Origin: Escherichia phage SpoonbillGilly
Sequence record: PP925828.1
Strand: one strand, 5' to 3'
Length of the DNA: 64,000 bases
Shown: piece after piece, positions 62,914 to 63,995 of the stretch
How the letters are laid out: each line of letters opens with the position of its first letter
Position numbering within the stretch: position 1 is the first letter of the stretch
Position numbers and translations under genes: made by a program
The notes under the pieces: model-generated
Seen by the model: only the letters and a program-made list of their open reading frames with translations
The model's database searches: none
What the model was told of the DNA's origin: nothing

Positions 62914-63228
62914 ATGCAAGATGAAGAAAAGTCCTTTCAGGAACCTGTTAACTTTGAAATAGATCCCAGGACTAAAGCAATACATGATGCAATTAACGAA
63001 ATCATTCAAGACGTCATAGAAGATACAATAGAAGACGTGATGGGAACATCCTTCTTACTAGAAGAATCCGGCTTCGATGAAGTAATGGATCTTATCGGGA
63101 CAGTCATAATGGTTCGTGCAATTGCTAGGATATTCCAAATACCAGGACTACAGGAGAAGCAAAGAGATGTCAGACGACAACAGAAGAAAGAACAGACGCG
63201 GGGAAGTGTACGAAAGTTGGATAAATAG
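62914..63228 (+). CDS. Hypothetical acidic protein with basic C-terminal tail (104 aa)
   Basis: About 18 Asp/Glu in the first 60 residues; C-terminus KQRDVRRQQKKEQTRGSVRK. Confidence 0.55.
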   Translation: MQDEEKSFQEPVNFEIDPRTKAIHDAINEIIQDVIEDTIEDVMGTSFLLEESGFDEVMDLIGTVIMVRAIARIFQIPGLQEKQRDVRRQQKKEQTRGSVRKLDK

Positions 63229-63301
63229 TTTCGGATTCGGGACTGTGTTATTCTTTATCTTTGTACTCTTTTGGTTAGCAGCTATGGCGGGGTGGTTATA
63301 A
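63116..63301 (+). CDS. Possible small membrane protein (C-terminal TM helix); true start uncertain (GTG near 63206?)
   Basis: FGFGTVLFFIFVLFWLAAMAGWL hydrophobic helix; overlaps preceding ORF in another frame. Confidence 0.35.
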   Translation: MQLLGYSKYQDYRRSKEMSDDNRRKNRRGEVYESWINSFGFGTVLFFIFVLFWLAAMAGWL

Positions 63302-63405
63302 TGGAAGTAGTAATTATTGCTTTACTAGTTGTGGTAATTATCGGACAGTGCATTCTAGATAACCACTTAGCTCGTATAGAACGTAAGCTGCGGGGAGACA
63401 AATAA
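63301..63405 (+). CDS. Small membrane peptide (34 aa)
   Basis: MEVVIIALLVVVIIGQCILDNHLARIERKLRGDK; stop overlaps next start (TAATG). Confidence 0.45.
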   Translation: MEVVIIALLVVVIIGQCILDNHLARIERKLRGDK

Positions 63406-63599
63406 TGGTTTGGCTAGGACTTATTACACTTGTAGTATGGCTTGTCTGGATTGTTGGATATATGACGTCACATCGTAATCGTATACAGCGGCTAGAGGAT
63501 AAAGTCACCCAACTGAATATTAATATGGATAAGTTACTGGACTCCCAACGTAATGATCGGGCACGTATTCACCAACTTGAGAGGGAATTAGATGTTTAG
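63405..63599 (+). CDS. Small membrane protein with N-terminal TM helix and coiled-coil tail (64 aa)
   Basis: MVWLGLITLVVWLVWIVGYM then RIQRLEDKVTQLNINMDKLL. Confidence 0.55.
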   Translation: MVWLGLITLVVWLVWIVGYMTSHRNRIQRLEDKVTQLNINMDKLLDSQRNDRARIHQLERELDV

Positions 63600-63837
63600 C
63601 TTTGTAGCTATCTTTATTATCGGGGTGCTTGCGGGAATCTTCGGAACACTCGGGGCGATTACTAAGCATCGTGAATATATTGCGGGAGTATCGCGGGAGC
63701 TTTCGGAAAGGGAGCGGAAGTTTGCGGAGAAACGGGAGGAGTTTGAGCGAGAGTGGTCGGATGGATCTCGGGCATCGCGGAGGAGATTTCGTATGTCAGA
63801 ATCAGGAGACAAGCCGGTAGACCGGTGTTCCTCCTAA
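63592..63837 (+). CDS. Small membrane protein with N-terminal TM helix and charged Arg/Glu-rich tail (81 aa)
   Basis: MFSFVAIFIIGVLAGIFGTLGAI then RELSERERKFAEKREEFEREW; start overlaps previous stop. Confidence 0.55.
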   Translation: MFSFVAIFIIGVLAGIFGTLGAITKHREYIAGVSRELSERERKFAEKREEFEREWSDGSRASRRRFRMSESGDKPVDRCSS

Positions 63838-63951
63838 GTTAGCGCTAATTACCAATTCTCGAAATCTCATAAGATTACACATGAAGGTGTGCCCAGAGGT
63901 TCCCTAGATGAGAATGAGTCTCATTACCGCCCTGGTACTTAGCAAGCTAAT

Positions 63952-63995
63952 AGTCACACCATGTTATCATTACACAGTGTGACTATTTTATTTTT
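63952..63995 (+). terminator. Putative terminator closing the llp operon
   Basis: AGTCACAC-17 nt loop-GTGTGACT followed by ATTTTATTTTT. Confidence 0.45.

Follow-up and report, generated by a model that had tools for sequence, protein, structure and literature searches.

A putative early operon of four overlapping membrane micro-protein genes between the lipoprotein gene and the right terminal repeat of a T5-like phage

Four micro-protein genes that match T5.159-T5.162

We analysed the far end of a 64,000-nucleotide (nt) stretch of DNA from Escherichia phage SpoonbillGilly (PP925828.1; the whole stretch is called the window below), where four small overlapping open reading frames (ORFs) follow a gene for a receptor-blocking lipoprotein (llp) and a gene for an acidic protein of 104 amino acids (aa); judged from the DNA, the six genes form one operon, which lies behind the llp promoter and ends at an intrinsic terminator. 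An earlier description made from the letters alone (the sequence-only reading) had proposed this layout, and an ORF check recovered its positions, its junctions, and its terminator; it had spoken of three to four small ORFs, and while the small ORFs themselves stand, their number is settled at exactly four. The window forms the right end of the genome of a T5-like phage of the genus Epseptimavirus (Demerecviridae). Over bases 62500-64000 it shares 99.1% identity with Escherichia phage GreteKellenberger (Bas26) and 98.7% with EscoHU1, which both belong to this genus, and matches to the locus were found in 282 phage records by megablast and in 447 by a more sensitive blastn search, nearly all of them T5-like phages of Salmonella and E. 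coli. In EscoHU1, the minus strand carries the terminase gene and then the gene for the receptor-binding protein (RBP); the plus strand carries the receptor-blocking lipoprotein gene, four to five hypothetical genes, and then the right terminal repeat; and dmp, on the minus strand, corresponds to a position just past the window end. We compared 27 loci, the window and 26 relatives (72% to 99% DNA identity), a set that takes in T5, H8 (L007), S124 (L008/L027), and phiR2-01.

All four small genes lie on the plus strand and have full-length matches to PHROG families. They encode predicted membrane proteins: a tail-anchored one of 44 aa (63167-63301; phrog_8596, E 2.4e-28), and then proteins of 34 aa (63301-63405; phrog_6369, E 1.4e-23), 64 aa (63405-63599; phrog_5851, E 1.2e-34), and 81 aa (63592-63837; phrog_6447, E 2.3e-46). 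The T5 genes bear the same PHROG identifiers, and the synteny is that of T5, with the small genes lying after the RBP/llp module and before the right terminal repeat, and the RBP gene on the other strand; by sequence match and position, the four genes are, in this order, the orthologues of T5.159, T5.160, T5.161, and T5.162 (ORF148-151 of AY587007). The locus is not new, because it has been annotated in hundreds of T5-like genomes and its genes are members of existing PHROG families.

Substitution patterns indicate that all six genes are real and under purifying selection in the annotated frame only. Omega (pooled Nei-Gojobori estimates across the 27 loci) is 0.15 for the 44-aa gene, 0.18 for the 34-aa gene, 0.48 for the 64-aa gene, and 0.38 for the 81-aa gene (0.29 over its codons 1-66); for all six genes, shifted frames give values of 0.7-2.3, as against 0.15-0.48 in the annotated frames. 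An explanation of the small ORFs as frames open by chance, in a leader or a spacer ahead of the terminal repeat, could appeal to their very short length and to the 81-aa region being unusually stop-free in several frames on both strands; but the frame-specific purifying selection, the conserved ATG codons, the Shine-Dalgarno (SD) motifs and the overlaps, and the fact that the ORFs stay intact even between phages only ~72% identical in DNA, leave it with almost no credence. The stop-free stretch (63592-63837) is open in two sense and two antisense frames (62-82 open codons) in almost all relatives; it looks like a side effect of GAG/CGG/GAA-rich coding, because the substitutions support the sense frame only. 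A candidate antisense gene under the 81-aa ORF was rejected, with an antisense omega of 0.40 versus 0.29 in sense, as expected from the shared third codon position.

The small genes are conserved across T5-like phages, and they differ in how much they vary. The 44-aa gene is present in 27 of 27 loci, with a nearly invariant core (RRGEVYxSWINSFGFGTxLFFIFVGFWLAAMAGW); it starts within the acidic gene, with which it shares the final 62 nt of the latter, and in most loci AGGAG stands 8 nt before its ATG (GGGAG, GGGGG, or GGAGG in others). A longer, 61-aa form starting at GTG was rejected: stop codons interrupt the extension in several relatives, and it is the ATG that the SD-like motif precedes. 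The 34-aa gene, TAATG-coupled to the 44-aa gene, is missing or fused in phiR2-01 and S124, where its start (MEWV/MEM) is joined to the body of the 64-aa gene (L004 2761-2955; L008 2411-2611). One locus has an additional 51-aa paralogue of the 34-aa gene (L026 2555-2710; hhalign probability 95%), and in another (L011), where an equal gap of 155 nt separates the 44-aa gene from the 34-aa gene, such a paralogue is apparently present as well; relatedness between the 34-aa and 64-aa genes is only suggested (hhalign 56%). These rearrangements suggest unequal recombination among similar N-terminal membrane-helix sequences. The 64-aa gene is the most variable member, absent from 8 of the 27 loci and occurring as two types that are ~40% identical (that of Epseptimavirus and that of T5).

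The 81-aa gene was found by tblastn in 443 phage records, compared to 441 records that carry a terminase at least 90% identical to that of the window, so that it is essentially universal in Tequintavirus/Epseptimavirus; it was not detected in the Providencia or Vibrio relatives or in any of the 81 Klebsiella-type records. In a 5.8-billion-protein collection its product falls into 48 clusters, from contigs of T5-like size or short fragments. Past residue 67 (the last 14 codons, 63793-63837) the protein has at least four unrelated endings (MSESGDKPVDRCSS, EFRPEHRFDDPSMR, AKVSDEE/ADSVSSPK, and IDDKI), which implies recombination breakpoints just ahead of the terminal-repeat boundary. HNH-type genes lie directly after the 81-aa gene in three loci (L006 and L009, 3243-3716; L021, 3176-3715), and the insertion there swaps the C-terminus of the 81-aa protein to AKVSDEE.

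The sequence-only reading had given each small product a single transmembrane helix, and the hydropathy check agrees for all four: each has a 19-residue window with a mean Kyte-Doolittle hydropathy of 2.2-2.8 (2.33 for the 44-aa protein). From hydropathy and the positive-inside rule, we infer that the four micro-proteins are single-pass inner-membrane proteins whose charged parts are cytoplasmic. The 44-aa protein is predicted to be N-in, with a basic cytoplasmic N-terminus and a C-terminal transmembrane anchor; the other three are predicted to be N-out/C-in, with one to four residues outside and basic C-terminal parts in the cytoplasm. Among these, the 34-aa protein consists of an N-terminal transmembrane helix and a basic C-terminal tail, and the 64-aa protein of an N-terminal transmembrane helix and a coiled-coil-like tail (its soluble part is 44 residues). 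The 81-aa protein has a glycine-zipper transmembrane helix with invariant G11, G15, and G18, a long charged helix, an invariant W-x-DGSR motif, and the variable tail described above; its AlphaFold2 (AF2) model is a predicted single helix over residues 2-70 (pTM 0.27), too uninformative for fold comparison. Small-residue packing motifs occur in the helices of the 81-aa protein (GxxxG-type) and the 44-aa protein (AxxxG). Because of these motifs and the tight translational coupling of the genes, joint assembly in the membrane is suggested: the four proteins may form an inner-membrane hetero-oligomer with its charged helices towards the cytoplasm.

An early promoter, a lipoprotein cassette, and a terminator inside the terminal repeat

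The predicted early sigma-70 promoter of the operon (62515-62543, plus strand) is of the near-consensus, extended -10 type as read from the sequence, with TTGCTT (62515-62520), a 17-nt spacer, and TGcTATAAT (62535-62543). Every locus with a lipoprotein gene keeps it, as do 10 distinct upstream sequences and T5; its T5 counterpart is annotated in AY587007 as the putative early promoter T5P41. The consensus scan overlooked it because TTGCTT fits TTGACA at only three of six positions. The first gene behind it (62573-62839, plus strand), divergent from the RBP gene, encodes a putative Cor/Llp-type lipoprotein of 88 aa, with a signal peptide and an LTGC lipobox (MKKLLAIVVAAVVLTGC). The protein matches the profile phrog_1119, 'Cor superinfection exclusion protein' (E 1.2e-23), and scores under the NCBIfam and Pfam cut-offs; it is ~68% identical to the counterpart found at the same position in most other sampled loci, the N-terminus of which fits the BF23/DT57C llp cloning primer, and its omega is 0.24 in the 27-locus set. 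We assign the gene to the Cor/Llp receptor-blocking lipoproteins by these features, with receptor blocking itself as a predicted activity.

Between llp and the acidic gene lies a 74-nt spacer (62840-62913, plus strand). In agreement with the sequence-only reading, which had seen no terminator after llp, our scan found none in the spacer, and the spacer fold is weak and not significant (-11.2 kcal/mol; z -1.5) and is followed by no U-tract. The 3' half of the spacer is retained in phages that lack llp: the FepA-using phages H8 (L007) and S124 (L008) have no lipoprotein gene at this locus, and in both the promoter leader runs straight into that half of the spacer (AAGTAAAC...GCAAACAC-ATG) and on to the acidic gene. 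Because the leader joins the acidic gene directly in these two phages, the lipoprotein gene behaves as a cassette inside a pre-existing operon, with the downstream genes independent of it.

The acidic homologues of H8 (L007 1997-2323) and S124 (L008/L027 2036-2347) are annotated as 'receptor blocking protein / T5 Llp-like'. The mislabelled protein has no signal peptide and no lipobox, and no lipoprotein gene stands between it and the RBP gene; the label appears to have been assigned from position only. The H8 protein has served as the 'Llp' outgroup in a published Llp tree (PMC12980165).

Of the two links to llp that had been proposed, co-expression is upheld by the shared promoter, the lack of an internal terminator, and the leader junction of H8 and S124, and a functional tie is not. 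The operon is unchanged beside FhuA-, BtuB-, and FepA-type receptor modules and in lipoprotein-less phages, and since it persists in FepA-using phages without llp, it is not functionally tied to that gene; the predicted topology also opposes such a tie, with the soluble parts of all four micro-proteins placed in the cytoplasm and not in the periplasm beside Llp.

Within the operon, the overlapping junctions are as described in the sequence-only reading, namely TAATG at 63299-63303 and at 63403-63407 and an 8-nt overlap at 63592-63599, and they are conserved among the compared loci. Every small gene keeps an SD-like motif and an ATG; the motifs are AGGAG or a G-rich variant, GGCGGGGTGG, GGGGAG or CGGAGAA, and GAGAGGGA. 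A terminator-like site at 63225-63246 and the promoter-like sites of the scan were rejected, being no commoner than in shuffled sequence. A promoter-like site at 63275-63302 (TTAGCA, 16 nt, TATAAT; 10 of 12 matches) straddles the junction of the 44-aa and 34-aa genes; the bases that it covers are conserved as coding sequence (LAAMAGWL-stop-ATG), so that its own conservation is uninformative. No Rfam family matched in a scan of 62400-64000.

The predicted intrinsic terminator (63949-63995, plus strand) consists of an 11-bp stem (63949-63959 paired with 63977-63987) and a U-tract (63986-63995), and both its fold and its U-tract bear out the hairpin terminator proposed earlier: the hairpin (63949-63987), followed by UUUUAUUUUU, has a folding energy of -16.4 kcal/mol (z -4.0), and none of 200 shuffled sequences was equally stable. 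S124 (L008) has a compensatory change in the stem (CACGG/CCGTG), and in T5 another hairpin, annotated as a rho-independent terminator, takes this position. On the minus strand no U-tract follows the hairpin, and it should therefore terminate mainly the plus-strand operon. We add to the earlier description that the terminator lies ~60 nt inside the right terminal repeat, the start of which, from about 63891, fills the last bases of the window (63891-64000); this boundary was transferred from the EscoHU1 annotation (repeat_region start at locus position 5392, corresponding to window position 63891, with aligned query and subject spans equal and no net indel), and T5 has the same terminal-repeat arrangement. 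With the terminator inside the repeat, the mature genome must carry an identical copy near its left end, ~60-105 nt in, where no plus-strand gene lies ahead of it and where it stands beyond the 3' end of the minus-strand dmp.

The acidic 104-aa protein

The second gene of the operon (62914-63228, plus strand; phrog_16810, E 2.4e-69) encodes a predicted helical protein of 104 aa. The sequence-only reading had called it strongly acidic, with a basic tail and a charge pattern like that of a DNA mimic. It is acidic to a moderate degree, with an isoelectric point (pI) of 4.7, a net charge of -7, 21% Asp+Glu, and 14% Lys+Arg; the charges are split between the first 75 residues (18 acidic, 5 basic) and the last 29 (4 acidic, 10 basic). 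The basic tail is present, but it fails as a feature of the charge pattern, since the last 62 nt of the gene are shared with the 44-aa gene: the tail is weakly constrained (omega 0.69, versus 0.18 over codons 1-84 and 0.26 overall) because its bases double as the ribosome site and the N-terminus of the 44-aa protein, and its basic character is best read as a by-product of the overlap.

The acidic gene is intact in six of the 27 loci (the window, EscoHU1, Bas26, H8, S124, and STG2). L005 has a frameshift in it, L004 and L006 have a truncated form, and T5 and its close relatives keep no more than a stop-riddled remnant; a tblastn search found it in 248 records, in many of them in several pieces or without its first 20 residues. 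Remnants lie between llp and T5.159 or its orthologue in the T5 locus (L003 2436-2600) and in L018 (2405-2515) and L013/L022 (2630-2785). The gene thus seems to be ancestral and decaying, not newly gained in Epseptimavirus. In two loci, HNH-type homing endonuclease genes lie between the acidic and 44-aa genes (L006 2200-2781; L007 2434-2781), and the insertion beside the acidic gene swaps its C-terminus, giving a protein of 108 aa.

The AF2 model (pLDDT 71.6) predicts two confident helices, at residues 18-43 and 54-73, and a low-confidence, basic C-terminal helix; the model is a helical hairpin with a hydrophobic second helix (hydropathy 1.46). Foldseek found nothing below E 7 for this model in the PDB, a PDB profile search found nothing, and Pfam and NCBIfam gave no match to any known DNA mimic. 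The protein has no more than 28 clusters, all of them on contigs of T5-like size, and an exhaustive profile search with its alignment against 1.84 billion representatives returned only its own family.

A role as a DNA mimic or anti-restriction protein would find some encouragement in the 18 acidic and 5 basic residues of the first 75 and in the gene being early and accessory. Such a role is nevertheless very unlikely, given the modest net charge and pI, the predicted two-helix hairpin with its hydrophobic second helix, the lack of a PDB match by fold or sequence, the confinement of relatives to T5-like phages, most of which lack the gene or carry it as a pseudogene, and the joint coding of the basic tail with the next gene. 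The DNA-mimic idea, which drew on charge alone, is unsupported because the gene is accessory and decayed and its product has neither relatives outside T5-like phages nor a fold match; the protein is best seen as an accessory, lineage-specific, decaying, cytoplasmic helical add-on, and very probably not as a DNA mimic.

Possible functions and comparison with known systems

The sequence-only reading had found no assignable function for any of these products, and our searches leave it so: Pfam, NCBIfam, PADLOC, the PDB sequence search, and Foldseek were all negative, with only sub-threshold matches in Pfam, NCBIfam, and PADLOC for the six products (LapA_dom, PspB, CcmD, MotB_plug, and CsiD). We found no functional study of the locus in the literature on T5.159-162, T5p157-162, T5 transcriptomics, and H8 llp, nor any mention of these genes among the papers searched, and the HIDEN-SEQ phage set includes no T5-like phage. 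In a CRISPRi-ART screen in T5, T5.159-T5.162 and llp were each 'Not Fit' on knock-down, with no fitness defect from any of the four small-gene knock-downs (PMC11879866 supplement).

We tentatively favour a role for the micro-proteins as an inner-membrane layer of superinfection exclusion, or in guarding the membrane or conditioning the envelope, to which we give a probability of roughly 0.3. One strong early promoter heads a swappable lipoprotein gene, a dispensable acidic gene, and the four coupled micro-protein genes, in this order. In the favoured scenario, the micro-protein complex would, early in infection, make the inner membrane resistant to another DNA injection of the T5 type or to the membrane damage that accompanies injection; it would form an exclusion layer independent of the receptor block by Llp at the outer membrane, and would be dispensable for growth in laboratory culture. 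Two observations point to exclusion, the early co-expression with a known exclusion gene and the conservation of the micro-protein sequences, which does not track receptor type; the latter would fit a target common to all T5-like phages, e.g., the injection machinery. The near-universal presence of the 81-aa gene speaks for importance in nature, while the 'Not Fit' scores and the natural absence of the 64-aa and 34-aa genes from some phages fit an accessory role in the laboratory.

Several points weigh against this interpretation. None of the products is homologous to a known exclusion protein, and there is no Pfam match to T4 Imm or another family; exclusion genes tend to be sporadic, and genes so nearly universal and so strongly purified would be unusual among them; the operon is also found without llp, which leaves neighbourhood as the only link to exclusion; the topology is a prediction; and the CRISPRi-ART evidence for dispensability is weak, because many structural genes are also 'Not Fit'.

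Ranked next is the possibility that the micro-proteins modulate host inner-membrane proteins, inhibiting or redirecting a membrane enzyme, transporter, protease, or sensor, or a membrane-embedded defence sensor (and so possibly including anti-defence), in the manner of phiX174 E, MgrB, and AcrZ. Known small regulators share the N-out/C-in single helix with a basic cytoplasmic tail. Early expression agrees with this possibility, as do genes that are dispensable in a laboratory K-12 host yet universally conserved, which is expected of natural-host functions; an arms race would be consistent with the gain and loss of paralogues and with the 64-aa gene having two allelic types, but the 44-aa and 34-aa proteins are very strongly conserved and not diversifying (omega 0.15-0.18). 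No product is homologous to a known regulator or anti-defence protein, and the target is hypothetical, so that host-protein modulation is possible and, in our ranking, stands behind exclusion or guarding and ahead of lysis timing.

The sequence-only reading had also suggested lysis timing; on this view, a holin-like, antiholin-like, or spanin-like factor would tune the timing or the manner of envelope breach. Lysis proteins make up most of the small phage membrane proteins that have been characterised. In the manner of a generic holin, the 81-aa protein is small, with one glycine-zipper transmembrane helix and a highly charged C-terminus, and the 64-aa protein weakly matches the Rz-like spanin family phrog_214 (E 0.0086). 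Against these stand the early class of the promoter, the predicted C-in topology together with a 44-residue soluble part of the 64-aa protein that is too short to span the periplasm, and the absence of the 64-aa gene from eight of the 27 loci. An assignment of the 64-aa protein as an Rz-like i-spanin was rejected: its predicted topology is N-out/C-in and not N-in/C-out, and its gene belongs to an early operon at the right end of the genome and not to the lysis cassette. Measured against holins, the 81-aa protein has the size, the single helix, and the charged tail, but no adjoining endolysin gene, and a T5-type holin is reported elsewhere. T5-like phages carry a holin, an endolysin, and both spanins in a lysis cassette elsewhere in the genome (PMC4342426; separate spanins also in PMC11664485), and because that cassette is complete a spanin or holin role is unlikely; we consider lysis timing improbable as a whole.

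Similar architecture is found at the same locus in more distant phages, in genes that have no sequence similarity to those of the window. Klebsiella phage Roth49 (L028 2733-3422) has no lipoprotein gene here and encodes two proteins that each begin with a membrane helix: one of 74 aa, which starts with MEVVIGALVLL and has a coiled-coil-like tail, and then one of 153 aa, in which the membrane helix leads into a helical region and a Ser-rich end. Providencia phage PSTCR5 (L029 2550-3687), also without a lipoprotein gene, has a soluble 173-aa protein and then five overlapping single-helix ORFs of 29-46 aa, one of which, with a charged N-terminus and a C-terminal anchor, resembles the 44-aa protein; Vibrio phage Cody has no such cluster at the locus. 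It is conceivable, though doubtful, that arrays of overlapping single-helix micro-genes are an ancient, position-conserved feature of the enterobacterial Demerecviridae, shared by T5, Epseptimavirus, Roth49, and PSTCR5 even where the sequences are no longer similar, and encode a dedicated inner-membrane complex for an unrecognised step of T5-type infection. Such a step could, equally speculatively, be the closing or guarding of the DNA-injection channel or the blocking of a second two-step DNA transfer.

In T5, itself a classical model phage, and in its relatives, the genes from llp to the terminal repeat are near-universal (essentially every T5/Epseptimavirus genome has them), under strong purifying selection, and apparently dispensable in the laboratory, a pattern typical of host-interaction genes. 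If an exclusion or guarding complex is indeed encoded here, T5-type superinfection exclusion would gain a second layer, which may help explain how the envelope tolerates two-step DNA injection. In practical terms, what is gained here is corrected annotation, which concerns the codon at which the T5.159 orthologue starts, the many phages whose acidic gene is a pseudogene, and the 'receptor-blocking protein' label in H8 and S124.

Compared with T5 itself, the window has the same order, sizes, overlaps, and early promoter as T5.159-T5.162, and a hairpin at the same position in the terminal repeat but of another sequence; three of the proteins are 73-87% identical to their T5 counterparts, and the 64-aa protein is ~40% identical. 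The differences are that in the window llp and the first small gene flank an intact 104-aa gene, whereas T5 has only the stop-riddled remnant; that the window lipoprotein is of the BF23/Cor type and that of T5 of the FhuA-blocking type; and that the C-terminal 14 residues of the 81-aa protein differ. With lambda Rz/Rz1 and the holins the locus shares a membrane-anchored helical or coiled-coil protein near an outer-membrane lipoprotein gene, small overlapping genes, and charged C-termini; it differs from these systems in a predicted cytoplasmic C-terminus, a soluble part that is too short, an early promoter, and a lipoprotein that is a proven receptor blocker in relatives. The likeness of the 64-aa protein to PspB (64-74 aa, an N-terminal transmembrane helix, and a cytoplasmic leucine-zipper-like helix) is one of architecture only, and identity with PspB was rejected: the score is 17.3 bits versus a cut-off of 25.6 (Pfam E 0.005; NCBIfam 0.013), and two of 12 members match, none of the T5 type. 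T4 Imm, HK97 gp15, and P22 SieA are small, early or constitutive inner-membrane proteins that act on incoming DNA, and none is matched in sequence or family by the products of the operon; the locus resembles the theme of Imm and the Sie proteins in being co-expressed with a receptor-level exclusion protein, and differs in having four single-helix proteins instead of one.

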